IMG/VR virus record: IMGVR_UViG_3300021964_000021
Span: 55,142 to 119,141 of that record
From: a virus
Reading direction: 5' to 3' (one strand)
DNA length: 64,000 nt
Positions 1-35,266 of this stretch are shown piece after piece. The translations under genes and the position numbers were made by a program. Positions within the stretch are counted from its first letter, which is position 1. Each line of letters begins with the position of its first letter. The notes under the pieces are model-generated. The model was not told where the DNA came from and did not search any database. It was given only the letters and a program-made list of their open reading frames with translations.

Positions 1-2348
1 AGGGATCTGGAGACATAACCTCCAGATCCTTTTTTATATGGCATGATATCTTCTAAGTCATTGAATAGCATACCAAGATACTCTTTTTTAAGAACATATA
101 TTTGTCTTTTTTCGCTTTCTTTTTTATCTTCGTACTGATAATTTGTTATAGGTACAGAAGATAATCTGCCATTAATTTCAGTCAATTCATCTGCTACTTC
201 ATCAAAGTAGACAGTCCCGAATGTTATTCTTCTTCTCCAATTGAATCCATCAAACTTCCATTCTTGACCATTTCTCTCATATACTTCATCTACTTGTGGT
301 GTATATGTTGGTCCTGGTTTACTGAAGAAGAGTTCTGGCATTGAATTATAACCTCTTCCAGGATTTGTCAATGTAATTTCTTTTACTCCTCCATTCTCTG
401 TTTTTAAGACTGCTTCGGCAGTAATTGGAGGTAATGGATTTTCTACAGTTGCAATTGGTGCAGTTCTATAATTGTATCCACGGTCTTGTATTACAACCTG
501 GTTTACGGAACCATTGACAATCGTAACATAACCCTTTGCAGTTCTATGTGGGATTGGTGGTTGAATTACTATCGATGGTAGTGGTGCGGTTGTATATCCA
601 GATCCAGGTTTTGTGACTGTAATATCAACAATTGTCTCTGCTCTAGTTCCGACACCCACAGTTGCAGTTGCTTTTGCAGTAACATCAGTATCATATGTGT
701 AGATTCTTCTGTTAATTGAACCACCAATGAAGAATAAAGTTTCAAAGGGATTTGTAAATACATCTAATGGTGTTGAATCTCCACTAGCAGCTTGAACGTT
801 TAATACGCCAAGTAAAGATAGTGCAGAAAGATCCCAAGCAGTACCTAATGTAATTACGAACGTTGAGTTGTTATCCGTACCACTAACATACATTTTTGTG
901 CCATCATCTTTAAAAGAGAAACCACGAATTGATGATTCTGTTGGTTGGCATATTACGGATATATTTGCTGTTTGTACTGGAAGTGGGAAGATGGAAGTTA
1001 TATCCCAAGGAACAGTACATTCATATTTTTTGATTGTGTCTGGATCTTGAGTATCAAGAACAAACATATGATCGCCATTATCTTGGAATCTAACTCCTGC
1101 CAGCGCAGGGAAGCTAACGTTACCTGCCAATGTTGCTGTGAGTACATCCCATGGAGTACTTAAGTCATACTGAGCAATTTTATTACCAGAATTGGTTAGA
1201 CCACTAACATACATCCTTGTGCCATCTGGTTTAAATTCAACGCCAGTAGCATATGTGAAGTTAAGACCACCAGTATTTAAGGTAAGTACATTTACTTGAG
1301 AGGCAGTATTTGGATCGTAACCACTGCTCATCTCATATTGTTCAATCGTTCCTTGAGTATAAGAATTTGCACCATGAGCAGTGTAGAAGTAAGTACCTGC
1401 AGGATCCATGTACCAACCTTCAAAACCACCATCAACAGTTACGCTACCGTTATTAACAAAAACAGCACTCTCAATGACATTTGGTGGGGGTGGGAAGGTA
1501 ACTATAGGCGTGAATGTATATCCATCACCTGCAGATGTAATGCCAACACTTTGAATTGTTCCACCAGCACCGATCACTGCTTCAAGAACTGCAGGAACCG
1601 TTGGAGGAGGCTCACTGAATGTTAACAATGGTTGGAATGTATAACCAGTTCCTGCATCAACGACAGTTATAGTTCCAATCTCTCTATCATCTGGTGGGAC
1701 ATTGAGTGTAGTGGTAATTGTTGCTAATCTTGGATTTGGTGGATCTGCAAATGTCACCTCTGCAAATGCTGTATATCCTGTTCCTGGATTAGTAACTGTT
1801 ACTGTCTTAACTTCACCACTAACTGGATCATATGTACCTGTTCCTGTTGCAAAATCTCCAGGAATTTCTGATGGTAAAATTACACTTGTGTCTAACTCAA
1901 TCTCATATTCTGGTGCATTGAAGAATCCTTCATTGACTTCAACACCACCTTCTAAGATTACATATCCATTTCTGGATTTAGTTTGAATGGTTTCATAATG
2001 ATGAATACCATTATATAATGTATTATAATCCCCATACTTTTCTATAAGGTGCTTATCAAAAGAATATTGTGTTTTTGGCCATTCTTCATATACATTATGA
2101 ACATTATTTGATAAGAGAACCACCCAATCTAAAGAAGAATCTCCATACAACTTATCAGCAACCTGATCTGGTCGTTCATCACCAACGATAGTATACTTAT
2201 TGAAGTAACTTATGCTTTGAAATATATCTTCTCTTATTTTGGCACGCTTAAATAAGTTCTTTGTGACTGTGTAGTCATTCAAAGAATTATTCTCAAGATC
2301 TCTTGAGATATATGCAATGCTTGGAACGTGGGTAAAGTAATTTGCCAT
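1..2348 (-). CDS. gp53: Baseplate wedge protein gp53-like with a large internal insertion (3' end runs just off the window)
   Basis: Not in the ORF track because it has no stop in the window. Manual translation from ATG at 2348 gives MANYFTHVPSIAYISRDL...KNLFKRAKIREDIF...YTIVGDERPDQVADKLYGDSSLDWVVLLSNN...EEWP, and at the far end ITNYQYEDKKESEKRQIYVLKKEYL...DIMPYKKGSGGYVSRS. These are typical cyanophage gp53 termini; the gene sits next to gp48. Confidence 0.85.
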   Translation of the reverse strand, partial: MANYFTHVPSIAYISRDLENNSLNDYTVTKNLFKRAKIREDIFQSISYFNKYTIVGDERPDQVADKLYGDSSLDWVVLLSNNVHNVYEEWPKTQYSFDKHLIEKYGDYNTLYNGIHHYETIQTKSRNGYVILEGGVEVNEGFFNAPEYEIELDTSVILPSEIPGDFATGTGTYDPVSGEVKTVTVTNPGTGYTAFAEVTFADPPNPRLATITTTLNVPPDDREIGTITVVDAGTGYTFQPLLTFSEPPPTVPAVLEAVIGAGGTIQSVGITSAGDGYTFTPIVTFPPPPNVIESAVFVNNGSVTVDGGFEGWYMDPAGTYFYTAHGANSYTQGTIEQYEMSSGYDPNTASQVNVLTLNTGGLNFTYATGVEFKPDGTRMYVSGLTNSGNKIAQYDLSTPWDVLTATLAGNVSFPALAGVRFQDNGDHMFVLDTQDPDTIKKYECTVPWDITSIFPLPVQTANISVICQPTESSIRGFSFKDDGTKMYVSGTDNNSTFVITLGTAWDLSALSLLGVLNVQAASGDSTPLDVFTNPFETLFFIGGSINRRIYTYDTDVTAKATATVGVGTRAETIVDITVTKPGSGYTTAPLPSIVIQPPIPHRTAKGYVTIVNGSVNQVVIQDRGYNYRTAPIATVENPLPPITAEAVLKTENGGVKEITLTNPGRGYNSMPELFFSKPGPTYTPQVDEVYERNGQEWKFDGFNWRRRITFGTVYFDEVADELTEINGRLSSVPITNYQYEDKKESEKRQIYVLKKEYLGMLFNDLEDIMPYKKGSGGYVSRS

Positions 2349-22180: not shown

Positions 22181-25100
22181 ATGGGTCTTAGTCGCTTAGA
22201 TAATTTCCTCAAGAATAGTAAAGGTGATATCCTTTACGTCGATCCTTCTAGTATTGACTCGACGGATAGTATTGAAAACCAGGGCAATTCCCTTGTTAGA
22301 CCCTTCAAGACTATTCAAAGAGCACTTTTAGAAGCAGCAAGATTCTCTTATCAGAAGGGTCTGGATAATGATAGATTTAGTAGAACAACGATCATCGTTT
22401 ATCCTGGTGAGCACCTTATTGATAACAGACCTGGATGGATTCCCATTCATGATAAACCATTAGTTGGTGACAACTGGTTGACTCGTAGTGGATCTACGTC
22501 AAATGATCTTACTCAGTTTACCTTAGATACTAATTTTGATATTGATGATCCAGAGAATGATCTTTATAAGATGAACTCTGTCTACGGTGGTGTAATTATC
22601 CCCCGTGGTACATCTATTGTTGGTATGGACCTTCGTAAGACGAAGATCCGTCCGATGTTCGTTCCTGATCCTGCAGACGCAGATATTAAACAGACCTGTT
22701 TATTCCGTGTAACTGGTACTTGCTACTTCTATCAGTTCACATTCTTTGATGCTAATCCCAATGCGTCTGTCTTTAAAGACTATGGTCTGACAAAGTACGT
22801 TCCTAATTATTCTCACCATAAAGTTACTTGTTTTGAGTATGCTGATGGTGTAAACGATGTTGGATTTAATGATAATTTCTTAAATTATTCTTCTGAGAGA
22901 ACTGACCTTGATATCTTCTATGAGAAGATTGGACTTGTCTTTGGTCCTTCTAGCGGAAGAAATGTATCTCCAGACTTCCCAGACTCTGGACTTGACATTC
23001 AAACCAAGATTGATGAATTTAGAATTGTTGGTTCTAAGGGTGAGAATGTTGGTATCAATAGTATTAAAGCAGGTGATGGTATCACTGCAAATACAACTAT
23101 TGAAGTTGAACTCACCGAAGCTATTGGTGGACTTGATGTAGATACTCCGATTAGAATTGAAGGTGTACCTACTGGTGGATATAATGGTTCCTTTGTAATT
23201 AGTGAGGTTCAAAGTCCCACTAAGATTGCTTACGAAGTATCTACTCCACCAGCAAATGCACTTCCATCTATTGTTGCAGGTGCTCCAACACTGAATATTG
23301 TTGTTGACTCTGTAACTTCTGCATCTCCATATATCTTTAACTGCTCACTCCGTTCTGTATACGGTATGTGCGGTCTTCATGCTGATGGTAGTAAGGCAGA
23401 TGGATTCAAGTCCATGGTTGTTGCCCAGTTTACGGGTATTGGACTTCAAAAGGATGATACTGCATTCGTAAAATATAATGCAATCTCTGGTGTATATGAA
23501 GACTCTACTGCCGTAAGTAACTTACACACCGACACCTCTGCAGTTTACAAACCAGACTACGAGAACTTCCATATTAAAGCATCTAATGATGCATTCTTGC
23601 AGTTGGTTTCTGTGTTCGCTATTGGATATGCGAATCACTTTGTTGCTGAGTCTGGTGGTGACCACTCAGTTACGAACTCTAACTCCAACTTTGGTGCAAA
23701 AGCACTTGTATGTTCTGGATTCAGAAATAATGCATTCCCAAGAGATGATACTGGATTTATCACTCACGTTCTTCCTCCTCAAAAACTTGATGATAATGAA
23801 GTAACTATTGAATTTGCATCGATTGACGTACAAAAAACTATCGATGCTGGTAATGATAATAGATTATATCTTTATAATGAGATCAATCAAAATATTCCTC
23901 CAAAGTCTGTACTTGAGGGATATCGAATTGGTGCAAAAGTCGATGATAGACTGAAAGTTATCATCAACGAGAATAATGTTCCTCAGACTAAAACTGCCAA
24001 AATTGTAATGCCAGACACCCAAGGAACGGGTGTCTATGAGGTAACTTCCACGAAGTTATCTACTGTTGGTAGAACTGCTATTGGTATCAATAGTATTACC
24101 TCCAATATTTTCACTCTGACTGAAGGACATCAGTTTAAGTCTGGTGAATCTGTACGTATTCTTAGTGATGATGGTGAACTCCCAGATGGTCTGGATCACA
24201 ATAGAGTTTATTATGCTATTACTGCTGGTATTAATACTGACCAGATTAAATTAGCACAAACTCTGAATGATACTATTAGTGCTTCTGCCGTTGTTGTAAA
24301 CAGTAAGGGTGGTATTCTTCAGATTGAATCTAGAGTATCTGATAAGAAGTCTGGTGATATTGGTCACCCAATTCAGTATGATGCTAATATTGGGCAATGG
24401 TATGTTAATGTATCCGATAACAATGAGATTTATAATACTGTTGTAGGACTTGGCACAAGTTCTCTTGGCGCAGCAACTCCAAAAACATTTATTAGCAGAA
24501 CTCCAGATAACAGAGGTCTTGAGGATGGAATCTATAAGGTAAGATACGTTGTACCAAAAGATTCTACTGTTCTTGGTAGACCACCTGAGGATTCATTTGT
24601 TCTTCAAGAATCTAGCACTACCGTTGGATTTACCAATCAAGAAGTCGCTAAATTTAAAAGTACATCGCCAGTAGTCCTCTCAAATACATCTGAGATCAGA
24701 AATCCAAGATTTATTTCGGATACTGAATGGGATGCAATCGTTGGTATTGCTACAATTAAAACTGAAATTCCCCATGATTTGTCTGTAGGATCTAAAGTAC
24801 AAATCTCAAATATTATCTCGACTGCAAATACTACTGGTCTTGGTAATACTGGATTTAATGGTGTTTTTAGTGTTACTGCTACTCCTGATAGAAAATCTTT
24901 TAGTGTTGGTCTGACTACTAATCCTGGTATTTTTAGTAACAATATTAATCTTAGAACTACAAGCCTTCCTAGATTTGAGCGTAAAGAGTATAATACTACT
25001 TTATTTGTATACAGAAAGGAAGAGATTCAAGAATATATTCCTAATGCAAAAGATGGTGTCTACCATCTGACTTTGATTGCTGCAGATTCTCAACCACAGG

Positions 25101-28009
25101 TTGCACCATTCCAAAATCTTAGATACAGTCAACCTCTTAAGAATCTTTATCCTCAGCTTGATAGAGATAATCCAACATCTGATCCTGAACAGACTAGAAC
25201 CTTCGCTCTGCCAACTCCACTTGGTTTGACTGAAGTTAATAATCCAAAGAATAGTCTTACAAAAGAGGTTATTAATAAGAGAACTAGAGACTTTGTATCT
25301 GGTATTAATATTGTTGAGATTACATCTTCCTCTGGAACCGCTCATACAGTAACTACTTCTGGAGACCACGGTCTTAATTACATCACTAAAGTTGGCATTA
25401 CTAGTGTTGGTGCTAATTACGGTGATGGATCTGGTAGTGTTCAGACACTTCATAACGCAAAATTGGTCGGATTTGCTGGATCTACAACTGGTAAATATGC
25501 AACTGCTAATATTGAGATTGATGCTACTGGTTCTATCTCTGACATCAAGATTGTTGATGGTGGATCTGCATATGGAATTGGTAATACCCTGTCTGTTGTT
25601 GGTGTTGGTACAACTACGGGACACATCCGTGGTTATGTAACAGTTGAGCACATTCACAATAGTATTGGTGATGTTCTTCGCATTGATGGAATCAGAGATG
25701 ACAGATTCAGGGATTACAATAACCTCTACAGAATTACAAGTATAGGTAATGGTGATGATGTAAACATTAATGTTGCTTCTGCAAGCACGGTATATTATAG
25801 AGAACAATTCGCTGCTCCTGCTGCTATCACTGGTATTAACACCAATGGATTAACTCAGATTAGCTCTGCTGTTCTCTCTGACACTACTGCTTATCTAACT
25901 GGTGATGCAATTGGTATCAGTTCTATTACATATGATAACTTATCTGGTATCTCCAGCATTACTACTGTTGATTCTCATGGTTTGTTGGTTGGCAACTCCA
26001 TTGTAATTGGTGGAGCAGGTAATTCCCTGATTGATGGACACTGGAGTGTTGATACTGTCTATAATGTCAATAGTATTGCAGTTAAGATTGGTATTGGTAC
26101 AACCACAGTAACACCAACTGGTGGTGGATTTATCTATAGAACTGGTGTTAATGCACAAGCATCTGGAATTGATCGTGCAGATGAAGCATCTTCTTCCAGA
26201 CTCGTACCACAATATGCTGGTATTACTACTACCTTGGCAGCTGCGCTGACCGATCCAACACTTAATACGTTGACTGTTACTAATGCATCTCACATGGGAT
26301 GGGATGTTGGTGACTATCTCATTATTGATAATGAAATAATGAGAATTGGTGAGTCTGTTACTAGTGATACTGCGATTGATGTCTTCCGTGGACTGTTTGG
26401 ATCTCAGAAGCAAAACCATGTAATTGGTGCTGTCGCAAGAAAAGTTAAGTTTGAACCAGTTGAATTTAGAAGAAACTCTATTATTCGTGCATCTGGTCAT
26501 ACCTTTGAATATCTTGGATTTGGACCTGGTAACTACTCCACTGCTCTTCCTGAGAGACAAGATAGGCAGTTCAAGCAAGTTGAGAGACTTCTGTCTCAGT
26601 CTATCTCTGTTAATGCAGGTACTCCGTTCTATAATGGACTTGATGACCAAGGTAACTCTTATACTGTTAACAAGTTTACTAGTGGTACTACAGGACAAGA
26701 TTTAATTACCAATGCACCAATTCCTACTGTAACTGGTGAGGATATTACTAGCGATACTGGTGCAGTTGGATTTGATGTAGATCAAACCGAACAACTGTCT
26801 GTTACTAGAGGTATTAAGGTTGACGGTGGTAAAGATAATGTTATTATCTCTCAGTTTAACGGTCCTCTTGTTGTTAATAAGAAACTGACTGTTAATGACT
26901 CTCTGGAAGGTAATAGTCTTTTGATCCAGGGTGATCAAACTATTGCTAGAGAGTATACAGTTGGCATCTCCACACCACAAATTGCAGGTAATGTTGGTAA
27001 TGTTGTCTATGATGCAGAACCAAATTCTGGTGGTGAGATTGGATGGGTTTATACTAATGACAACAACTGGAAGAAGTTTGGTCCTATTCAGGCAAATCCA
27101 GACAATTATTATGTTGGTCTCTGGAGTGGAACATTTAGAGGTGATGGATCTGGTCTGACAAACGTATCTGACGTTTGGGTGTTTGACGGTGTTGGTATCT
27201 CTACTACTGCAAACGTTGGTATTGAGACGACCTCAGCAAAACCAGGTTATTCTCTGTATGCTAGTGGTCCTGTTCTTTTTGAAAATAACGTTGAGTTTAG
27301 AACTCAATCGCTGGTTTGGAACATTCCAAACGGTTGGATTGTAGAGACTGGTATTAGTACCTTTAATCAGCAAGTCAACTTCAATACTGTCAATGCAGTC
27401 GGTGTTGCTACATTCTTGCAGAGTGTCATTGTCTCTACTGATCCTGCAGTTACAAATGATGCGTCTGATAATGATGGTAACTTTGTCAGATTTGTTCAGA
27501 CTGACCCAGCACTTAATGCCTCTTATGGATATGGTGGTCTGAAGTTTGAAGGTAATGACATTGGTAACACTGGTGAGCGTGGATACATCAAGGGTCTATC
27601 TGAGGGTACTTCTGGACAATTTGCTCTGGTCTTTGGTACAATGGAGAACGGAGTCTCCAATCCTCAGGAGAGACTCAGAATCAACGCTGCTGGTAATGCA
27701 AACTTCTCTGGCACAGTCACTGCTAACTCTGATGAAAAACTGAAGGAGAATGTTGTTGGTATCACCAACGCACTTGAGAAGGTCATGGATCTTAGAGGTG
27801 TCTACTTCAACCGTATTGGTAAAGAAGAGCGCGAGATTGGTGTTATTGCACAAGAAGTTGAGAAGATTCTTCCTGAACTTGTTAAGGAAGGTCCAGATGG
27901 AACCAAAGCAGTTGCATATCAAAATATGGTTGCGGTGCTTGTTGAAGCAATCAAAGAGCAACAAGAACAAATTAATGAACTAAGATTGAGATTGGATTAT
28001 CTTAAATGA
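22181..28009 (+). CDS. Large tail fibre/tailspike with C-terminal peptidase S74 intramolecular chaperone
   Basis: 1942 aa; N-terminal MGLSRLDNFLK...RPFKTIQRALLEAARFSY; C-terminal SDEKLKENV...LRGVYF...IGVIAQEVEKILPELV...VAYQNMVAVLVEAIKEQQ = S74 chaperone. Confidence 0.85.
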   Translation: MGLSRLDNFLKNSKGDILYVDPSSIDSTDSIENQGNSLVRPFKTIQRALLEAARFSYQKGLDNDRFSRTTIIVYPGEHLIDNRPGWIPIHDKPLVGDNWLTRSGSTSNDLTQFTLDTNFDIDDPENDLYKMNSVYGGVIIPRGTSIVGMDLRKTKIRPMFVPDPADADIKQTCLFRVTGTCYFYQFTFFDANPNASVFKDYGLTKYVPNYSHHKVTCFEYADGVNDVGFNDNFLNYSSERTDLDIFYEKIGLVFGPSSGRNVSPDFPDSGLDIQTKIDEFRIVGSKGENVGINSIKAGDGITANTTIEVELTEAIGGLDVDTPIRIEGVPTGGYNGSFVISEVQSPTKIAYEVSTPPANALPSIVAGAPTLNIVVDSVTSASPYIFNCSLRSVYGMCGLHADGSKADGFKSMVVAQFTGIGLQKDDTAFVKYNAISGVYEDSTAVSNLHTDTSAVYKPDYENFHIKASNDAFLQLVSVFAIGYANHFVAESGGDHSVTNSNSNFGAKALVCSGFRNNAFPRDDTGFITHVLPPQKLDDNEVTIEFASIDVQKTIDAGNDNRLYLYNEINQNIPPKSVLEGYRIGAKVDDRLKVIINENNVPQTKTAKIVMPDTQGTGVYEVTSTKLSTVGRTAIGINSITSNIFTLTEGHQFKSGESVRILSDDGELPDGLDHNRVYYAITAGINTDQIKLAQTLNDTISASAVVVNSKGGILQIESRVSDKKSGDIGHPIQYDANIGQWYVNVSDNNEIYNTVVGLGTSSLGAATPKTFISRTPDNRGLEDGIYKVRYVVPKDSTVLGRPPEDSFVLQESSTTVGFTNQEVAKFKSTSPVVLSNTSEIRNPRFISDTEWDAIVGIATIKTEIPHDLSVGSKVQISNIISTANTTGLGNTGFNGVFSVTATPDRKSFSVGLTTNPGIFSNNINLRTTSLPRFERKEYNTTLFVYRKEEIQEYIPNAKDGVYHLTLIAADSQPQVAPFQNLRYSQPLKNLYPQLDRDNPTSDPEQTRTFALPTPLGLTEVNNPKNSLTKEVINKRTRDFVSGINIVEITSSSGTAHTVTTSGDHGLNYITKVGITSVGANYGDGSGSVQTLHNAKLVGFAGSTTGKYATANIEIDATGSISDIKIVDGGSAYGIGNTLSVVGVGTTTGHIRGYVTVEHIHNSIGDVLRIDGIRDDRFRDYNNLYRITSIGNGDDVNINVASASTVYYREQFAAPAAITGINTNGLTQISSAVLSDTTAYLTGDAIGISSITYDNLSGISSITTVDSHGLLVGNSIVIGGAGNSLIDGHWSVDTVYNVNSIAVKIGIGTTTVTPTGGGFIYRTGVNAQASGIDRADEASSSRLVPQYAGITTTLAAALTDPTLNTLTVTNASHMGWDVGDYLIIDNEIMRIGESVTSDTAIDVFRGLFGSQKQNHVIGAVARKVKFEPVEFRRNSIIRASGHTFEYLGFGPGNYSTALPERQDRQFKQVERLLSQSISVNAGTPFYNGLDDQGNSYTVNKFTSGTTGQDLITNAPIPTVTGEDITSDTGAVGFDVDQTEQLSVTRGIKVDGGKDNVIISQFNGPLVVNKKLTVNDSLEGNSLLIQGDQTIAREYTVGISTPQIAGNVGNVVYDAEPNSGGEIGWVYTNDNNWKKFGPIQANPDNYYVGLWSGTFRGDGSGLTNVSDVWVFDGVGISTTANVGIETTSAKPGYSLYASGPVLFENNVEFRTQSLVWNIPNGWIVETGISTFNQQVNFNTVNAVGVATFLQSVIVSTDPAVTNDASDNDGNFVRFVQTDPALNASYGYGGLKFEGNDIGNTGERGYIKGLSEGTSGQFALVFGTMENGVSNPQERLRINAAGNANFSGTVTANSDEKLKENVVGITNALEKVMDLRGVYFNRIGKEEREIGVIAQEVEKILPELVKEGPDGTKAVAYQNMVAVLVEAIKEQQEQINELRLRLDYLK

Positions 28010-28194
28010 ATCTGTGGAGAATCTGGGCAAAAGCACTAGGTCAAAAGGAGGGTAAAAATGATAGAGAGGCAGATATTGTTGCTTGCATACGCACCTTTAT
28101 TCTTATTTGTTACATGGTCACTAATGTGGCTATCGTGGCAAATGCCGTAAGGCATTGGAACGATGTTCCTACGCCAGCTTGCGAAGTGTCATAG
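28006..28194 (+). CDS. Small hypothetical membrane protein
   Basis: WRIWAKALG...ADIVACIRT plus a hydrophobic helix. Confidence 0.6.
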   Translation: MNLWRIWAKALGQKEGKNDREADIVACIRTFILICYMVTNVAIVANAVRHWNDVPTPACEVS

Positions 28195-28197
28195 TAT

Positions 28198-28218
28198 GGG
28201 GGCAATGCCCCCTTTTTT
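28198..28218 (+). terminator. Rho-independent terminator
   Basis: GGGGGC-AAT-GCCCCC hairpin followed by TTTTTT. Confidence 0.75.
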
Positions 28219-28256
28219 ATGGTGTATACTTACTGCATACAACGATCTTCGCATTC

Positions 28257-31200
28257 GTGCTCAACATCTACGTCGATACTCTCAAGGGTTCTAAGAACTC
28301 CTTCAACGTTGGCGAGACCCACTTCACCTGGGAGCACCGTCATCGTGGACGTGACTATGGTAAAGCGAAGCAGGTTCTTACCCAGTTGGATTCCAAGTAT
28401 GTTCGTTGTGCTTGGTGGGAGAACGTGTCTACCCGTGATGACAAGGATCATCACCATGACACCATCATTCATGAGTGGTTGATGACTCTTCCTGGTGTCA
28501 AGAAGATTGGTCAGGAGACTTTTGAGTTTGATCTCAAACTTTATACAATTGAGATCCTTGTTCAGATGATGGAGGAGAAGTTTTTCTCTGGCAAGAAGAA
28601 GGAATATGTTGAGTTTGTTCCCCGTCCATATCAGCAGAAGTTCCTTAAGAAGATTGCATGGTGTACTAGCAACGAGTTCTTGCTGTTCGCTAAGTGCCGT
28701 GCAGGTAAGTCTGCAATGGTCCTTAAACATATTGTTGATACCAACTATAAGGTATCCCTGGTTTGCTCCCGTCAGAAGTCTCCTGAGGGGTCCTGGAAGG
28801 CGGATTCAAACCAGTTCTTCCCTTCAGTCAAGTACATCTCTCTCAAGGATCCTGGTTGGGAGACCTACCTTGAGTATTGGCGTGATCGTGATGTGAACGT
28901 TGTTCTCTGGGGTACAGTTCAGACTTGCCTGAAGCGTCTGGATAAGATCAAGAACGTTGACTTTGTTGCTTTTGATGAGGCACACATTGGTGGTAATGCA
29001 CCAGAGTTCGTTCAATTGCGTGAGGCACTTGACACTCGTATCTGCTACATCTCTGGAACTGCCCATAAACTCTGTTGGATGTTCCCTGATGAGAACCAGA
29101 AGTTTGTCTATACCTACTTTGATGAGCAACTGGATGTTCAGCGTGGGATCTTTAAGCGTCCTAAGATGAAGGTTGCCTTTGCCAAGTATCAAACATCTGC
29201 ATATCAGGAGATCTTCGGTGATGATCCTGATGCAATGAAGAATATTTTCACCATGAAGGGAACTAAGTTCCTGTATGAGGATCTGGTAAGGGAGTTCATT
29301 CATAATTACTTTGGACCGCAGCGTAATATCCGCATTGGTGATCGCCTTCTTAAAGGTACATATCACATGATGGCACTACCTAGTGTCAAGGCATGTCATG
29401 CATTCCAAAAACTGGTTGAGTGTTATTATCCTGCACTGGTTGTTACTTCTGATGCTAAGAAGAATCAGGATGACATCAATCGATTCTTGGATGAGCATTC
29501 CAAGGCATTGATCATCACTCAGTCTGCAAATGTTCTGGGTGTGACTGCTGAGAAGATTGATACTGTTATCAACTGCCGTGGTGGTGAGTCAATCGAGTTC
29601 TGGACTCAGTTTGCGTTCCGTGGTGGATCTGGTGATCATGACTGGTGGGTCATTGATTTTGATGCTCAGAGGTGCCTCCGTGCTATTCACACGGCATTCC
29701 AGTTGGCATGTGATAGCAATCCTTCTTTGTCACAATATAGTGTTGTTGACTTCACCAACATTCATGAATGGAACGATGGGTTCCAGGAACTGAGCAAGGA
29801 AGCATTTGAAGATGCTTTAGCGGCAGATGTTGAGAGCAGCATCTCTACTGTTACCAGCATCGTTGAGTCACTGGATCTCAGTGGACTGAGTGACTTTCAT
29901 CTCAATTTGAAGTCTGCTCTTACCTCTGTTGTCAAGGAGACCCAGTTGAATGACAATGGTGCAAACAATCGGAGCTGCATTGAGCGGGAGACTGAGATTG
30001 CAAAAAAGTCTGATGACCTTGATACTCTGAAGAAGCAGACTGTCAAGGCACTCTTGGAGTCAATTCCACTGTCTATGTTTTATATTATTCGTAATGGACA
30101 GAATGTTTATTCTATCAATGATGTGATTGGGTCTGATGTATATACTTCTGTCACTGGTGACAAGGAAGGTATTCTCTCTGAGGTTATCTCTAAGAATCCT
30201 CAGAGTATGGAGTTGTTGACTCGCCGCATTGGATTAGTCTCCAACAGCATCCAGAAGAGCATGAGGCAGTCTGTCTCTCAGACTATTAACAGTCTCTCAG
30301 TCTCATCTGCGATTCAGCAGTCAATTCCAACCACGTTGCTTGACAACATGATTGATCAGTGCAAAGATATGAGCAACACATACATGTTTGGTGATCCCAG
30401 TGGTTCCCATTCTGCTCGACTCCTGGAACGTGGTATCGATCCCAACCGTCTCACTGTGTGGGAGAGTTGCGATAGTCATCGCAGTCGTGTAGAATATATT
30501 CATAAACAGATCAACGTCGTTGCCTCCCACCCAAACATGAAGTTCACCGCCATCCTTGCCAATCCCCCATACAACGACCCCACAAAGAAGGCACGGAACA
30601 ACAAACTGTGGACCAAGGTGGTTGAGCAGCATCTGGAGATGCTTGCTCCTGGTGGAGACATGTGTGAGGTGACCCCTGCATCGGTGTTGGGTAACACAGG
30701 CAAGGGTAAGAAGTTTATGAAGTTGTTCTCTACTATCTACAACCTCAAACTCATTGACTACACTGCCGATGATTACTTCACTGAGGGTGTGGATATCTGT
30801 CGCTGGCACCTGGTGAATGAACCATATCAGGGCAAGACTACTGTGATTACTCATGATGGGTCCTTCACCTGGGATCTCCGTGATGGTCTGCCTCTCTTCG
30901 GTGATGCTGCTTTTAAGCACTCCATCCTGGAGAAGATTGCAAACTCAAACCACCCTCGTATTCCCTTGAAGATTGGTCAGGAGATTGCCAATGAGGACTA
31001 CGTTCCTGATGGTAAGTATGAGGTCTTCAAGACTGGTGACAAGATTGCTCGTACCAACGTGGTCCCAAACACTGGAGACGTGCTAAAGTTCATTGTACCG
31101 TTCTCCTCCAGCTACAAGAAGAGGTTCATCTCTAATGGATTTGTGGGTATGCTTAATGTTTGGTGCCCTATTCCTTCTCAAGAGGAGGGGACGCGCCTTA

Positions 31201-31382
31201 GTGAGATCTTTGATAATTCGATCATTCGGTTTTTTGTGGAGAACTATAAGCGGACTTCGGGATTTACTCCAGCTATTAAGAATGCGGAAGTACCTGACAT
31301 CACGAACTATGAGGATCTGCCTGGTCAATTTGGTCTCACCTCAGAAGAACTAAACTACCTCCAACGAATCAATGTCCTCTAA
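28257..31382 (+). CDS. Restriction-modification-like fusion: GIY-YIG-like nuclease + SF2 helicase + N6-adenine methyltransferase catalytic/TRD region
   Basis: N-terminal IYV...VGET...R...DTIIHEWL...QETF; PRPYQ, AKCRAGKS (Walker A), FDEAH (Walker B), ISGT; MKFTAILANPPY. Start placed at GTG 28257, downstream of the terminator and of TATACT at 28225. Confidence 0.75.
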   Translation: MLNIYVDTLKGSKNSFNVGETHFTWEHRHRGRDYGKAKQVLTQLDSKYVRCAWWENVSTRDDKDHHHDTIIHEWLMTLPGVKKIGQETFEFDLKLYTIEILVQMMEEKFFSGKKKEYVEFVPRPYQQKFLKKIAWCTSNEFLLFAKCRAGKSAMVLKHIVDTNYKVSLVCSRQKSPEGSWKADSNQFFPSVKYISLKDPGWETYLEYWRDRDVNVVLWGTVQTCLKRLDKIKNVDFVAFDEAHIGGNAPEFVQLREALDTRICYISGTAHKLCWMFPDENQKFVYTYFDEQLDVQRGIFKRPKMKVAFAKYQTSAYQEIFGDDPDAMKNIFTMKGTKFLYEDLVREFIHNYFGPQRNIRIGDRLLKGTYHMMALPSVKACHAFQKLVECYYPALVVTSDAKKNQDDINRFLDEHSKALIITQSANVLGVTAEKIDTVINCRGGESIEFWTQFAFRGGSGDHDWWVIDFDAQRCLRAIHTAFQLACDSNPSLSQYSVVDFTNIHEWNDGFQELSKEAFEDALAADVESSISTVTSIVESLDLSGLSDFHLNLKSALTSVVKETQLNDNGANNRSCIERETEIAKKSDDLDTLKKQTVKALLESIPLSMFYIIRNGQNVYSINDVIGSDVYTSVTGDKEGILSEVISKNPQSMELLTRRIGLVSNSIQKSMRQSVSQTINSLSVSSAIQQSIPTTLLDNMIDQCKDMSNTYMFGDPSGSHSARLLERGIDPNRLTVWESCDSHRSRVEYIHKQINVVASHPNMKFTAILANPPYNDPTKKARNNKLWTKVVEQHLEMLAPGGDMCEVTPASVLGNTGKGKKFMKLFSTIYNLKLIDYTADDYFTEGVDICRWHLVNEPYQGKTTVITHDGSFTWDLRDGLPLFGDAAFKHSILEKIANSNHPRIPLKIGQEIANEDYVPDGKYEVFKTGDKIARTNVVPNTGDVLKFIVPFSSSYKKRFISNGFVGMLNVWCPIPSQEEGTRLSEIFDNSIIRFFVENYKRTSGFTPAIKNAEVPDITNYEDLPGQFGLTSEELNYLQRINVL

Positions 31383-31788
31383 GAACCGCCACAACCAACA
31401 GCACGGGTCTAATATTGAACGCTCTGATGAGCGTATTAAGCAGACACAGGAGGTCTTCACTCCAATTGCTCTGATTGAGCAGATGATTCTGGAGATCCCT
31501 GTGTCACAACTGAAGGATCCCGAATCTAAATTCATGGACAACTGTGCTGGTAGTGGTAACTTCCTTGTTTGTCTGTGTGAGATACTGCAGGAATATCACA
31601 GCAGAGATCACATCATCAACAACATGATGTATGCTGTGGAGTTGATGGAAGATAATCACAAAGAGATGTGTAGGAGACTTGACATCCCTACAGATCATCC
31701 GCACTTCGTCTGTGCGGACGCACTTCAGTATCACTACAGGTTTGATGGGACCACAGGACCTGTCACGATGGATCAGTTTGTGGTATAG
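31372..31788 (+). CDS. Stand-alone N-terminal (SAM-binding) half of an amino-DNA methyltransferase
   Basis: RIKQTQEVFTP (motif X), FMDNCAGSGNF (motif I), YAVEL (II), VCADAL (III); no NPPY. Confidence 0.8.
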   Translation: MSSKNRHNQQHGSNIERSDERIKQTQEVFTPIALIEQMILEIPVSQLKDPESKFMDNCAGSGNFLVCLCEILQEYHSRDHIINNMMYAVELMEDNHKEMCRRLDIPTDHPHFVCADALQYHYRFDGTTGPVTMDQFVV

Positions 31789-31801
31789 TATCTCTATCGA
31801 T

Positions 31802-33037
31802 ATGAGTTCAATGCAACTTCGTCCCCATCAGGCAAAGGCACTTGATGTCATGACTCAGTGGTCAAACGGCATCATTGTGGTCCCTACTGGTGGGGGCAAG
31901 ACCTTTATTGCTATCTCTGATGCTAAACGTGAGCTTGCTACCCCTGGTCGTAAGACTATTGTAGTGGTTGCTCCTCGCTTGCTCCTGGCACAACAGTTGT
32001 CTGCTGAGTTCACTGAGCACATCACTAACGCTGCTGTCTTGCACGTTCACTCTGGTAGTGGATCGCATCACACGACAACCAATCCTGAAGAAATTCGGTT
32101 GTGGCAGGAGTATACTCCTGGTCACTTGTTAATATTTACTACATATCATTCTCTGCATCGTATCCAAGAGTCTAAAATTGATGTAGATGTAGTTTACTTT
32201 GATGAAGCACACAACTCAATCAAGAAGAACTTCTTTGGTCCTACCAGGTTTATCTCTGCTGGTGCTCGCCGCAGTTACTTCTTTACTGCTACTCCTAAGT
32301 ACACTGCCACTTATCGCAAATATGGCATGAATGATCCTATCTATGGTGGAATCATCTATAACGTCCCTGCTACAGAGTTGGTAAAGAATGGTTCTATCCT
32401 TCCCCCTAAGATCAATGCTATTCCTATTGCTGGTCACAGGGAGAAGGGAGAGGATGCTGCACAGGGAGACTGTGATACTCTCCTAGATACTTTGAAGTAT
32501 GAAGACTGCATGGATAAGGTGCTGATTGCAGCACCTAACACAAAGGTTATGATGCGTATGCTTGCAACCACAGACTTCATGTCTGAGGTTCGTGCCTTAG
32601 GTTATGACCTGCTCTGGATCACCAGTAAGCATGGTGCCTTCCACAACGATCAGAAGGTTACTCGTGAGCACTTCTTCAACCTTGTTCGCGCTTTTGGTGC
32701 TGACCCTGATAAGAAGTTTGTTGTTCTCCATTACTCTATTCTGAGTGAGGGCATCTCTGTTCCTGGTCTGACTTCTCTTGTTCTCATGCGACAGATGAAC
32801 GTTATTGAGATGTGTCAGTCTGTTGGACGTGTCATTCGTCTGCACCTGGATGACATTCAAGGTATCAAGCAGGGCACTCTCATCCCTGGTGATACTAAGC
32901 AATACTCCAAACCATTCGGTTTAGTCCATGTTCCTGTCTACAGCAACGTTGGAATCTCCACAGTCAAACGCCTTGAGAAGGTCGTTAACACTGTATTTGT
33001 TCAGGGTCAACCCGCTATTGCCACCATTAAACGATGA
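31802..33037 (+). CDS. SF2 (DEAH, ResIII-like) helicase
   Basis: LRPHQ, PTGGGKT, VVAP, FTTYHS, FDEAH, FTATP, ILSEGISVP, QSVGRVIR. Confidence 0.9.
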   Translation: MSSMQLRPHQAKALDVMTQWSNGIIVVPTGGGKTFIAISDAKRELATPGRKTIVVVAPRLLLAQQLSAEFTEHITNAAVLHVHSGSGSHHTTTNPEEIRLWQEYTPGHLLIFTTYHSLHRIQESKIDVDVVYFDEAHNSIKKNFFGPTRFISAGARRSYFFTATPKYTATYRKYGMNDPIYGGIIYNVPATELVKNGSILPPKINAIPIAGHREKGEDAAQGDCDTLLDTLKYEDCMDKVLIAAPNTKVMMRMLATTDFMSEVRALGYDLLWITSKHGAFHNDQKVTREHFFNLVRAFGADPDKKFVVLHYSILSEGISVPGLTSLVLMRQMNVIEMCQSVGRVIRLHLDDIQGIKQGTLIPGDTKQYSKPFGLVHVPVYSNVGISTVKRLEKVVNTVFVQGQPAIATIKR

Positions 33038-33468
33038 TTGAGTACATACACCACAAGAAGCAGTATCTATTTGCCACTAATGTTAGTTGGCTGGATGTTG
33101 CAAGTCAGATTGAATTAGAGAAGGTTAACGACACTTACAGAGCAATCAGTGATGAGACTGATCTTTGTATTGATTGTGGATGTGTTCCTGGATTTTTGGC
33201 AAACATCTATCAAAAATTCAAAAGAGATTATGGATATAATGCGATGCACATGTACACTTCTCGTAAGATTGGTGCTGAGACACTAGGTAGACACAATGAT
33301 GATCAAGACGTTCTTATTGTGCAGTCAAGAGGTAGGATGACATACAAATTTGATGATAATAATGTGGTAACATTGTACCCAGGTGATGGATTGTATATTC
33401 CCGCCTGGGTACACCACAACCCAATCACCATTGAACCACGAATTACCCTAAGTTTGAGCAGAGGATGA
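33034..33468 (+). CDS. Cupin/JmjC-like oxygenase
   Basis: LGRHNDDQDVLIVQSRG...LYPGDGLYIPAWVHH...RITLS. Confidence 0.75.
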   Translation: MIEYIHHKKQYLFATNVSWLDVASQIELEKVNDTYRAISDETDLCIDCGCVPGFLANIYQKFKRDYGYNAMHMYTSRKIGAETLGRHNDDQDVLIVQSRGRMTYKFDDNNVVTLYPGDGLYIPAWVHHNPITIEPRITLSLSRG

Positions 33469-33692
33469 CCACTGACAAAGAACTAAAAGAAATTTACAAT
33501 TTTTACAAAGATTGTGATGAAGGATTTGTTACTAGGGACGGGTATGCCGCTGTCCCACTTATGGGTTCAAAATCCCTTGTAGTAGTGTATAATGGAGAGC
33601 AACTAAAGGTGTGTAGGACTGAGAAGTCTGCTCACACTTTTATCAAAAAACATCGCACCCAAGTCAAAAAAGGAACTGTTTTTGTATCATGA
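33465..33692 (+). CDS. Hypothetical protein
   Basis: 75-aa ORF in an overlapping ATGA chain. Confidence 0.6.
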   Translation: MTTDKELKEIYNFYKDCDEGFVTRDGYAAVPLMGSKSLVVVYNGEQLKVCRTEKSAHTFIKKHRTQVKKGTVFVS

Positions 33693-33910: not shown

Positions 33911-34085
33911 GTTGGTACATCTTCAATTGCAGGCGATGCTCAGGGAGAACAAGTTCCCTAGTAGTGAGATTATGTACTGTGGTCAGAGAGAAGGAGAGCA
34001 CTGGTATCTTATTGGCGGTGAACATGAAGTGCCAGTGTCTCAAATTGTAGACATTAATCCAGTAGATGAAGATCAAGAAGTTTGA
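33885..34085 (+). CDS. Hypothetical protein
   Basis: LVHLQLQAMLRE...HWYLIGGEHEVPVSQI. Confidence 0.55.
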   Translation: MVTKISRSELVHLQLQAMLRENKFPSSEIMYCGQREGEHWYLIGGEHEVPVSQIVDINPVDEDQEV

Positions 34086-34557
34086 AGTCGATGAAAAAGT
34101 AACAGAGTATTTTACTTTGTTATTAAAGGTTTGCATGGCAAAACCTGAAGTAATTGATCATAAGCAGAGCTCTTTATCTCCAAGTTGCTCTGCTACTTTA
34201 AACTTACTCAATTTTAAGATGCCTGAAAAGTTTTATAACTATACTGGCAGATTACTAAGAAAGTCTGAAGAAGTTACTGGTGAGATATTAAGATACCATT
34301 ACATGCATATGGTGGATTATACTAATGGTGGTATAATGTCAGTACACTCACACAAACACAACGAGGACTATAGTTTTATCCTGTATCTTAACGATTGCTC
34401 TGACGGGGATACTGTTCTTCATTTAAAGAATCAGTATAGAGTAACTCCAAAAAAGGGTACTGTTCTATTATTCTCCTCGTTAATTCCACACTCGTCTGAA
34501 TACTCAAAAAGTAAGCAGGTATTTGTGGGTGGTCTTAAAGTAAAACACGAGGTCTAA
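34066..34557 (+). CDS. 2OG-Fe(II) oxygenase family protein
   Basis: HSHKHNEDYSFILYLNDC..GDT...PKKGTVLLFSSLIPH. Confidence 0.75.
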   Translation: MKIKKFEVDEKVTEYFTLLLKVCMAKPEVIDHKQSSLSPSCSATLNLLNFKMPEKFYNYTGRLLRKSEEVTGEILRYHYMHMVDYTNGGIMSVHSHKHNEDYSFILYLNDCSDGDTVLHLKNQYRVTPKKGTVLLFSSLIPHSSEYSKSKQVFVGGLKVKHEV

Positions 34558-34749
34558 ATGGATTGGGACAACACCACTAAACTAGAGAAGCGTAAAGATG
34601 CATTTTACATCTTTTATGAGAGTGTATTGAAGCCAGACCATGAGTTGCGTCAAGATGCTCATGAACAGAAGTGTTATCATGAACTGCTTGAATGGCGTGC
34701 AGAAATTATTGAATACCTTGACCGACGAAGGAATGAAGAATTCTATTGA
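34558..34749 (+). CDS. Hypothetical protein
   Basis: 63-aa ORF with GAGG RBS. Confidence 0.6.
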   Translation: MDWDNTTKLEKRKDAFYIFYESVLKPDHELRQDAHEQKCYHELLEWRAEIIEYLDRRRNEEFY

Positions 34750-35266
34750 TAAGTTTGCTATTCCGTTTTATCAAACAAAGATTGAGAACTGGGAAGAGAA
34801 GAAGCAAAAACTCCTGGACATTTACGATAGATTTGCCCAGGATAATATGGATGAGGGAGAACAAAATTCTGACTTTGAACAGGATAATAACTATCATATT
34901 TTGATTGAGACTATCCTGTTTGATGATATTAAGCGTGCAACAAAGGAACTTGATCTATTCAAGAGAGCACCGAGAGTTGCTAATGCATGGTTCCAAACCT
35001 ATGACTTAGCACACTCTCATGCCCTCCATAATCATGGATTGGGTAATCTTAGTATGGTCTGCTATATAATGTATGATCCTGAGCATCATAGACCAACTAC
35101 TTTTGTAGCACCATTCATGAGTCTTACTGACGGTAATATTATGGAATGGGAACCAGAAGGCGTTGAGGAAGGAACTTTAGTCATGTTCCCTTCTGGATTG
35201 GCACATTATGTACCAACAAACCAGTCTGATGTCAGAAGAATGATTTTATCTGCAAATATAGGGTAA
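34733..35266 (+). CDS. 2OG-Fe(II) oxygenase family protein
   Basis: AWFQTY...HALHNHG...YDPEHHRPTTF...EGTLVMFPSGLAHYV...RMILSAN. Confidence 0.8.
   Translation: MKNSIDKFAIPFYQTKIENWEEKKQKLLDIYDRFAQDNMDEGEQNSDFEQDNNYHILIETILFDDIKRATKELDLFKRAPRVANAWFQTYDLAHSHALHNHGLGNLSMVCYIMYDPEHHRPTTFVAPFMSLTDGNIMEWEPEGVEEGTLVMFPSGLAHYVPTNQSDVRRMILSANIG

Follow-up and report, generated by a model that had tools for sequence, protein, structure and literature searches.

Why would a phage carry a separate gene for the cofactor-binding half of a DNA methyltransferase directly behind a gene whose product appears to have such a half already? This question is raised by two overlapping genes in the IMG/VR virus record IMGVR_UViG_3300021964_000021, which we analysed over a stretch of 64,000 nucleotides (nt), hereafter the window, whose numbering is used for all positions. 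The large gene (28257-31382) starts with GTG and encodes a protein of 1041 amino acids (aa) that has PHROG and Pfam matches as well as homologues of the same length and start. The ATG of the small gene (31372-31788) sits inside the large gene, giving an overlap of 11 nt, and its 138-aa product appears as a stand-alone cofactor half with the methylase motifs X, I, II and III. Both genes, and all features described within them, lie on the + strand. A preliminary description, made from the sequence alone, had reported the two open reading frames (ORFs) with their motifs, and we found all of them, including NPPY at 30561-30572. It had further proposed a split adenine methyltransferase, in which the small protein would complement an eroded S-adenosylmethionine (SAM)-binding half of the large one in trans.

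Our preferred reading, to which we give a probability of about one half, is that the locus is a translationally coupled, two-gene restriction-modification (RM)-like unit of a T4-like cyanophage, with the small protein as an alternative second cofactor lobe. The product of the first gene would have the build of a Type ISP or IIG enzyme, with a nuclease-like domain, an ATP-driven motor of superfamily 2 (SF2), a linker, a complete methylase and a target recognition domain (TRD), and the second gene would encode a SAM-binding half of that methylase family in detachable form. With partners that start at motif IV, motifs X and I-III would come in trans from the small protein, giving a split, order-swapped enzyme. 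In the window, the large protein appears to have a built-in, differently derived cofactor half, and the small protein would not be rescuing a decayed domain. Instead, it may dock on the motif IV/TRD module and bind SAM, forming as a second lobe a methylation-competent assembly beside the nuclease-motor form. What the analysis shows is the anatomy, the complete predicted fold, the linkage, the selection and that split and permuted relatives exist; that the two proteins bind each other in this case, that either half binds SAM, and any methylation, cleavage or biological role are inferred.

The methylase module of the large protein

Judged by sequence and structure prediction, the large protein is composed of a nuclease-like domain, an SF2 motor, a linker, a complete gamma-class adenine methylase and a TRD. 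Motif order, Pfam score and predicted fold together identify residues 686-1041 as a gamma-class member of the TaqI/CamA/Eco57I type. The motifs follow one another linearly in the order X, I, II, III, IV (NPPY), TRD, and the order of the strands in the model matches. The built-in cofactor half (residues 686-760; 30312-30536) comprises motif X (SIPTTLL, residues 689-695), motif I (GDPSGSHS, 712-719), motif II (LTVWES, 732-737) and β3. It is followed by the catalytic half (residues 761-880; 30537-30896), which opens with MKFTAILANPPY (residues 761-772, NPPY being residues 769-772) and carries the Pfam Eco57I match and the HsdM/TaqI motifs IV-VI. Finally, a TRD-like C-terminal domain (residues 881-1041; 30897-31379) closes the protein and is reached by the alignment with CamA.

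The Pfam family Eco57I (PF07669) matched residues 747-840 only, with 27.4 bits at a cut-off of 25.3, and PHROG 3689 (DNA methyltransferase) matched residues 710-1020. When a profile of the methylase region was compared with the sequences of the Protein Data Bank, only motifs IV-VI were matched (HsdM, 5.9e-4; TaqI, 0.13). The built-in half was recognised by its predicted fold alone and not by a sequence profile, which probably accounts for its decayed appearance when the sequence alone is read.

An AlphaFold2 model covering residues 651-1041 had a mean predicted local distance difference test (pLDDT) score of 78.2, with low values in parts of the C-terminal domain (model residues 288-321 and 349-359). 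The built-in half corresponds to model residues 38-110, and the segment 41-120, which also holds motif IV, scores 91-96. Within the model, the motif X helix and strands β1, β2, β3 and β4 come in the expected order. Using VIA-align, M.TaqI was superposed with a Z score of 17.4 and a root-mean-square deviation of 2.9 Å over 185 residues (model 38..231 on TaqI 21..245), a match that takes in all of the TaqI catalytic domain, starting with motif X. CamA aligned over 287 residues (model 22..377) with a Z score of 18.7, and further fold matches were M.BseCI (Z 16.5), then Type I HsdM, BrxX, DrdV, BpuSI and MmeI. As modelled, the large protein forms a methylase domain without the small protein.

Conservation was assessed in an alignment of 14 full-length homologues of the large protein with 42-86% identity. 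Eight residues of the built-in half (I690, P691, D713, P714, G716, H718, T733 and V734) are invariant in all of them, and 13 of the 14 retain an acidic residue past β2 (E736; in some, D), the exception being P0071 with a proline. Within NPPY, N769, P771 and Y772 are invariant, while P770 is kept in at least 90%. The ratio of non-synonymous to synonymous substitution rates (dN/dS) is 0.11-0.23 for the built-in half and 0.03-0.06 for the catalytic half, indicating purifying selection on the former that is less tight than on the latter. Because its motifs are conserved, it is under purifying selection and its predicted fold is complete and TaqI/CamA-like (pLDDT > 90), the built-in half is, on sequence and model evidence, a non-canonical but conserved cofactor half, and the erosion that the preliminary description had seen there was not borne out.

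Met761, the first residue of the catalytic half, is conserved in close relatives and missing in P0037, P0068 and P0069. The pattern M-[KRN]-[FY] stands ahead of β4 in 12 of 19 single-chain relatives, and a Shine-Dalgarno-like sequence is absent both before Met761 and before genuine starts. We rejected Met761 as evidence of an internal start or a nested product, since the pattern is a feature of the family; it probably also accounts for splits occurring exactly at this point.

The small protein and its partners in cyanophages

The small protein contains the motifs EVFTP (residues 27-31), DNCAGSGNF (56-64), AVEL (88-91) and CADAL (114-118) and stops ahead of the motif IV strand, having motifs X and I-III only; its motif I is of the canonical G-x-G-x-F form. 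Its match to the Pfam family N6_Mtase (PF02384) scores 23.4 bits at a cut-off of 20.4 and covers only positions 22-89 of 311. A phmmer search returned 748 relatives at E ≤ 1e-3, many of them stand-alone proteins of 100-200 aa, and 22 diverse stand-alone members all share R21, E27, F29, P31, G60, G62, D94, N95 and F124. Some relatives are joined to a catalytic half: P0136 is a single chain in gamma order, whose small-like half runs straight into FDVIVGNPPF and a C-terminal half (C-half) like that of the large protein, and P0146 and P0197 are permuted single chains with motif IV at the start and the small-like half at the end. Searched against the sequences of solved structures, the small protein had no meaningful match (best E 0.83, unrelated), and a profile comparison with hhalign found no similarity between it and the built-in half (Probab 0.15, or 0.15%; E 0.4). 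Taken together, the sequences place the small protein, as a detached cofactor half with motifs X and I-III, in the methylase family to which the catalytic/TRD half of the large protein belongs. With a dN/dS of 0.08-0.10, the small gene is a real, selected gene and not a relic. The proposed split of an adenine methyltransferase holds for this product, which has only motifs X and I-III, but not for its partner in the window, which has a cofactor half of its own.

In a forward survey, we inspected the gene upstream of the small gene in the best 80 of 445 viral-contig loci encoding a relative of the small protein. At least 600 nt of upstream sequence were present in 75 of these, which we regard as testable, and the 5 loci below that length were left out. 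A gene with motif IV abuts or overlaps the small gene in 69 of the 75 loci and lies within 3 kb, with another gene between, in 6; no locus (0/75) was found to be without a motif-IV gene. Overlaps between partner and small gene range from 5 to 44 nt, as measured from the start of the tblastn match, and the intervening gene of the 6 non-adjacent loci is either the 197-aa gene of the Bellamy layout (4) or a helicase (2).

The adjacent partners fall into several forms. More than half (37/69) start at motif IV without any cofactor half, and these minimal partners have neither a built-in half nor extra nuclease-like/motor modules. Helicase fusions like that of the window account for 13, and 15 have another N-terminal extension (three 468-aa forms and twelve resembling gene 215 of S-SKS1). 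Two comprise a built-in half and a C-half and lie immediately behind a separate gene for a nuclease-helicase, one is cut by the contig end, and one (L082), a 1063-aa protein with the variant NSPF, was missed by the motif pattern and counted by eye. Across the 75 testable loci, the constant partner of the small gene is the catalytic/TRD module and not the nuclease-motor. In the 80 loci, a built-in half was observed solely in partners bearing or directly following extra N-terminal nuclease-like or motor modules (30 loci).

Trans-complementation appears obligatory in 37 of the 75 loci because the partner has no cofactor half, and there it is, as far as the sequences tell, the only route to an enzyme. 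The family seems to contain a naturally split, order-swapped adenine methylase. The proteins of 279-282 aa encoded at two loci (L023 and L033) start at motif IV and share 58-61% identity with residues 761-1041 of the large protein; their genes occupy the same genomic slot, between the fibre gene and the small gene with its helicase. Isolated phages provide further cases: gene 036 of P-SSM2 (193 aa) opens with MKFTLAIGNPPY and overlaps the small-type gene 037, and gene 75 of S-CAM7 (317 aa) opens just ahead of motif IV and overlaps gene 76. The idea that the small protein complements the large one in trans therefore survives in part, in that the small protein looks like a detached half and 37 of 75 partners are without one of their own; its application to the window does not, the large protein here having a conserved half.

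In a reverse survey of loci encoding a relative of the large protein, 28 were testable and one more had 38 nt downstream only. The small gene lies 3' of the large-protein relative in all 28, in agreement with the co-occurrence expected by the preliminary description, and the junction, with its 11-nt overlap, has identical geometry in 27 of them. In the forward direction, a partner of at least 1040 aa is present in only 14 of the 75 testable loci. The small gene does, then, commonly occur without a full-length large gene, which that description had named as speaking against its proposal, but we never saw it without a motif-IV partner.

We then compared the constraint on 32 distinct small proteins that have a C-half-only partner with that on 12 whose partner has a built-in half, the window's included. 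Of 46 columns that are invariant with C-half-only partners, 44 show no variation with the other kind of partner either, and many of the conserved positions lie outside the SAM motifs. Such unaltered constraint suggests that the molecular job, too, has stayed the same; in minimal pairs, this job would include docking on the C-half. Of the 46 residues that never vary where the small protein is indispensable, the one in the window retains 44, and so it probably still docks on the catalytic/TRD module.

Several variations were observed among the partner loci. Motif IV can read NFPF, NYPY or NSPF instead of NPPY, the variants coming from S-CAM7 gene 75 (L005, 3052-4005), S-SKS1 gene 215 (L006, 2665-4044) and L082. 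A protein of 187-200 aa is encoded between methylase and small gene in Bellamy (gp87; L003, 4445-5008) and ACG-2014f (gp52; L004, 5482-6084); it belongs to PHROG 7683, of unknown function, has no Pfam match and shows by eye a D ... Q-x-K pattern like that of Mrr-type nucleases. In P-SSM2, gene 038 (462 aa; L002, 5538-6926) lies between the small gene and the helicase and has a weak match to DpnI_C, the Dam-replacing helix-turn-helix domain (0.014), and a match to PHROG 27790; it may be another member of the module.

A number of points weigh against the small protein acting as a second lobe in the window. In the complete fold predicted for the large protein, the β4 edge, which is the canonical dock for a separate front half, is occupied in cis. 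Purifying selection on the built-in half argues that it works, leaving the job of the small protein here unexplained. Furthermore, hhalign shows no profile similarity between the small protein and the built-in half, so that a recent duplication, which would make them plainly exchangeable, is not demonstrable. The 80 loci are the nearest relatives of the small protein, many of them from related phages, and many loci of the two surveys stem from identical or related contigs, so that the counts are not independent events. The viral record comprises 119 kb and is estimated to be 59% complete, and another partner could lie outside it; within those 119 kb there is neither another Eco57I or N6_Mtase match nor a second C-half gene like P-SSM2 036. 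Finally, the nuclease assignment is weak, with a best Z score below 5 and negative Pfam searches. If the small protein docks despite the complete fold in cis, the built-in half might be displaced, a second copy of the large protein might be used, or a shorter product might serve as the partner.

It is unlikely, in our judgement, that the built-in half is a SAM-incompetent remnant, with the only working cofactor site in the small protein and the large protein inactive alone. Such a division of labour would fit GDPSGSHS, which is without the second glycine and the aromatic residue that motif I of the small protein has, and the yet more degenerate motif I of Bellamy gp86 (VFDTFLTL) and ACG-2014f gp53 (LFDAGCVI), both with a small gene nearby. 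The linkage in 28 of 28 loci, the 44 of 46 residues retained from obligately split forms and the faster evolution of the built-in half compared to the catalytic half are in line with it as well. However, the invariant D713, P714, G716 and H718, together with the acidic residue in 13 of 14 homologues, form the pattern to be expected of a working ribose/SAM site, and the built-in segment matches the N-terminal half of M.TaqI in its entirety; motif I of M.TaqI is itself non-canonical. In addition, the small protein would find a free edge on the complete cis fold only if the built-in half were displaced.

Equally doubtful is a small protein that acts independently of the large one, be it as a SAM-binding or SAM-sensing regulator, as a partner of the helicase, or as a partner of a C-half encoded in the missing 41% of the genome, with the linkage inherited from a split ancestor. 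In favour of this are the methylase fold of the large protein, predicted to be complete without it, the great abundance of stand-alone relatives of 100-200 aa, the synteny of the small gene with a separate SF2 helicase gene in many loci, and the 59% completeness of the record. On the other side stand the motif-IV gene that is adjacent or at most 3 kb away in 75 of 75 testable loci, the overlap geometry shared by 27 of 28 loci, the constraint that matches, in 44 of 46 columns, that of forms which must dock on a C-half, and the absence of a second Eco57I/N6_Mtase gene from the 119-kb record.

A rather improbable further scheme has a single catalytic/TRD module served by two alternative halves, the tethered TaqI-like one and the free G-x-G-x-F one, whose exchange would switch the enzyme between restriction-competent and methylation-only states. 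The exchange could proceed if the built-in half were displaced or if a shorter product were made from the conserved Met761; relevant to it is the finding that the built-in half was seen only together with nuclease-like/motor modules (30 loci). It is very improbable that the small gene is a non-functional leftover of a split ancestor, made redundant when a complete methylase was fused to the nuclease-motor: it does look redundant beside a complete built-in half, but its dN/dS of 0.08-0.10, its intact motif residues without exception, its presence in 28 of 28 loci and the 44 of 46 family-invariant columns that it keeps all speak against this.

The nuclease-like domain, the motor and the genomic surroundings

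The N-terminal domain of the large protein (residues 1-125; 28257-28631) shows a GIY-YIG-like pattern, NIYVD ... FNVGET ... R28 ... E87. Its model (pLDDT 83.5) has a β-β-α-α-β-α order of elements that fits the GIY-YIG core, and G19, K36, D68, H72, E87 and F89 are invariant across 26 sequences. Fold comparisons gave weak matches. In a wide VIA-align search the best Z score was 4.9, and four of the 11 best rows, with weak Z scores of 3.8-4.5, were GIY-YIG structures rather than Mrr ones (1ywl, which we take to be a GIY-YIG protein, At-HIGLE 7wme, and Slx1 6seh and 7cq2). Foldseek returned nothing at E ≤ 0.001 for residues 1-125, Hpy188I ranking 36th with E 4.1, and Pfam searches with six N-terminal fragments at E up to 10 gave no match for the large protein; neither Mrr nor another nuclease family was detected in it with Pfam. 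The protein at L082, a distant analogue, has a Pfam match to T5orf172 (1.6e-5), presumably a member of the GIY-YIG clan. When the N-terminal 170 aa of the S-SKS1 type were compared with the N-terminal domain using hhalign, only the methylase part aligned. The GIY-YIG-like N-terminus put forward previously is thus weakly supported: motif pattern and order of elements fit, the fold matches are weak (Z 3.8-4.5) and Pfam gives none, and a nuclease assignment is plausible but unproven.

The SF2 helicase-like ATPase (about residues 126-480; 28632-29696) is defined by PHROG 16 and by conserved motifs: the Walker A motif AKCRAGKS (residues 145-152; 28689-28712), DEAH (residues 240-243; 28974-28985), SGTAH (29052-29066) and FRGGSG (29616-29633). 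PHROG 16 (DNA helicase) matches residues 77-473 with E 4.7e-15, and the helicase motifs, including Walker A and DEAH, are invariant among the 14 full-length homologues, confirming the SF2 motifs reported before. A Pfam ResIII match is confined to the MA01 homologue and is not found in the large protein of the window. The motor is followed by a linker or coupler (about residues 481-685, with approximate boundaries; 29697-30311), which is helical at its end in the model and lies inside PHROG 22930, a match that spans residues 8-699.

The large gene is not a single gene in all relatives. In the closest ones (L007-L009, and L087 and L088), whose small proteins are 92-93% identical to that of the window, it is divided into two genes, for a nuclease-like/helicase protein of ~593 aa and a linker/methylase/TRD protein of 468 aa; the former occurs in many clusters, at 79-85% identity. 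In L041 and L081, the large protein is cut elsewhere, between the motif X helix and β1.

The window resembles T4-like cyanomyoviruses, and in protein searches the proteins of the locus matched only phages of Synechococcus and Prochlorococcus (Kyanoviridae and relatives). Among the phage records searched, no close relative of the locus was found by nucleotide sequence, the sole match being a 151-nt flank. Directly upstream of the locus lies a fibre-like structural gene (22181-28009) encoding 1942 aa, whose C-terminal ~100 residues presumably resemble the self-cleaving chaperone domain known from the tail fibres and tail spikes of phages. It is followed by a 62-aa ORF and by a strong intrinsic-terminator-like hairpin, GGGGGCAATGCCCCC, with a T run (28198-28220, + strand; 6 G-C pairs, loop of 3), which stands between this ORF and the large gene. 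An early-type promoter had been reported ahead of the locus, but our scan showed the terminator and no sigma-70-like site between it and the start codon at 28257. The nearest + strand sites are at 27613-27642 and 28522-28549, and the scanned region held 14 sigma-70-like sites, with 10.4 +/- 3.3 expected. No Rfam family was found in 27500-33500.

A separate SF2 helicase gene (31802-33037, + strand; 411 aa, ATG at 31802) starts 14 nt past the small gene, with matches to Pfam ResIII (5.7e-17) and DEAD (9.4e-14) and to PHROG 16 (3e-62). Among 15 loci laid out gene by gene, 8 have a helicase gene downstream of the small gene (L018, L019, L023, L033, L040, L041, L081 and L082). Further downstream, small cupin/JmjC-like ORFs occur in series (33034-33468, 34066-34557 and 34640-35266), the first of which matches Pfam JmjC_2 (1.3e-8) and Cupin_2 (3.3e-5). 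The G+C content is 0.451-0.462 across the locus (window 28001-32000) and about 0.36-0.41 in the flanks, and the slot between fibre gene and helicase is filled differently among relatives, by the full fusion, by the 593 + 468 aa pair or by a 280-aa C-half alone. This compositional shift and the variable gene content of the slot suggest that the locus is a compositionally distinct, swappable cassette.

Significance and relation to known systems

In textbooks, adenine methyltransferases are single-chain Rossmann enzymes, and their circular permutation classes have long been explained by hypothetical split or duplicated intermediates. The cyanophage family described here displays most such stages, with gamma-order chains, permuted chains and two-gene forms that are cut between motifs III and IV and have their genes swapped. 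The window adds an unusual fusion, in which this module is joined to a motor and a nuclease-like domain and the free cofactor half persists. If both proteins assemble, they would be a simple natural model of protein-fragment complementation and possibly a new control of restriction versus modification; an exchange of halves would amount to a new form of RM regulation, by subunit-level domain swapping through the Rossmann core. Abundant marine cyanophages would then carry motor-driven RM-like enzymes of their own, with a bearing on host DNA degradation, phage-phage competition and N6-methyladenine marks in viromes. In the literature searched, which did not extend to subscription-only papers or REBASE, we met no account of a split adenine methylase from cyanophages, and at the level of the family the split and permuted methylase is apparently undescribed.

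Type ISP enzymes are defined by an Mrr nuclease, an SF2 ATPase, a coupler, a methylase and a recognition domain on a single polypeptide (PMC4666363). The large protein follows this module order, with a nuclease-like domain, SF2 ATPase, linker/coupler, gamma methylase and recognition domain. It differs in that its N-terminal domain does not appear Mrr-like but has the GIY-YIG-like pattern, with weak fold support, and in being much shorter (1041 aa) and phage-encoded. Nor does it evidently act as a single polypeptide, given the linkage of its gene to a cofactor-half gene in 28 of 28 loci; all modules are present in the large protein, yet they are distributed over two genes (593 + 468 aa) in the closest relatives. 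The 50 fold matches listed contain no Type ISP structure. From sequence and model, we liken the large protein to Type ISP enzymes in module order, which falls short of membership.

The Type IIG/IIL enzymes and PglX of the BREX system (MmeI, BpuSI, DrdV and BrxX) share the methylase core, with Z scores of 14.8-15.7, and the fusion of a nuclease or other module to a gamma methylase and TRD. Unlike the locus described here, they have neither an ATP-dependent motor nor a separate cofactor-half subunit. The PADLOC match to 'REase_MTase_IIG' is weak (E 0.0029), and PADLOC and NCBIfam gave nothing beyond weak, partial matches. Closer in fold are M.TaqI, CamA and M.BseCI, which residues 686-1041 are predicted to resemble in structure as well as in the order X-I-II-III-IV-TRD. 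These enzymes are single chains, whereas the cyanophage family also includes two genes in swapped order and permuted single chains, and the locus in the window has two cofactor halves per catalytic half.

Finally, precedents for a DNA methyltransferase made of two polypeptides are M.AquI and M.EcoHK31I, which are C5-cytosine enzymes encoded by neighbouring or overlapping genes (PMC3404938). They differ from the cyanophage proteins in belonging to the C5-cytosine class, in their unswapped order and in having no nuclease-motor fused to them. Their split lies within or after the variable region, whereas here it falls between motifs III and IV, through the Rossmann core.

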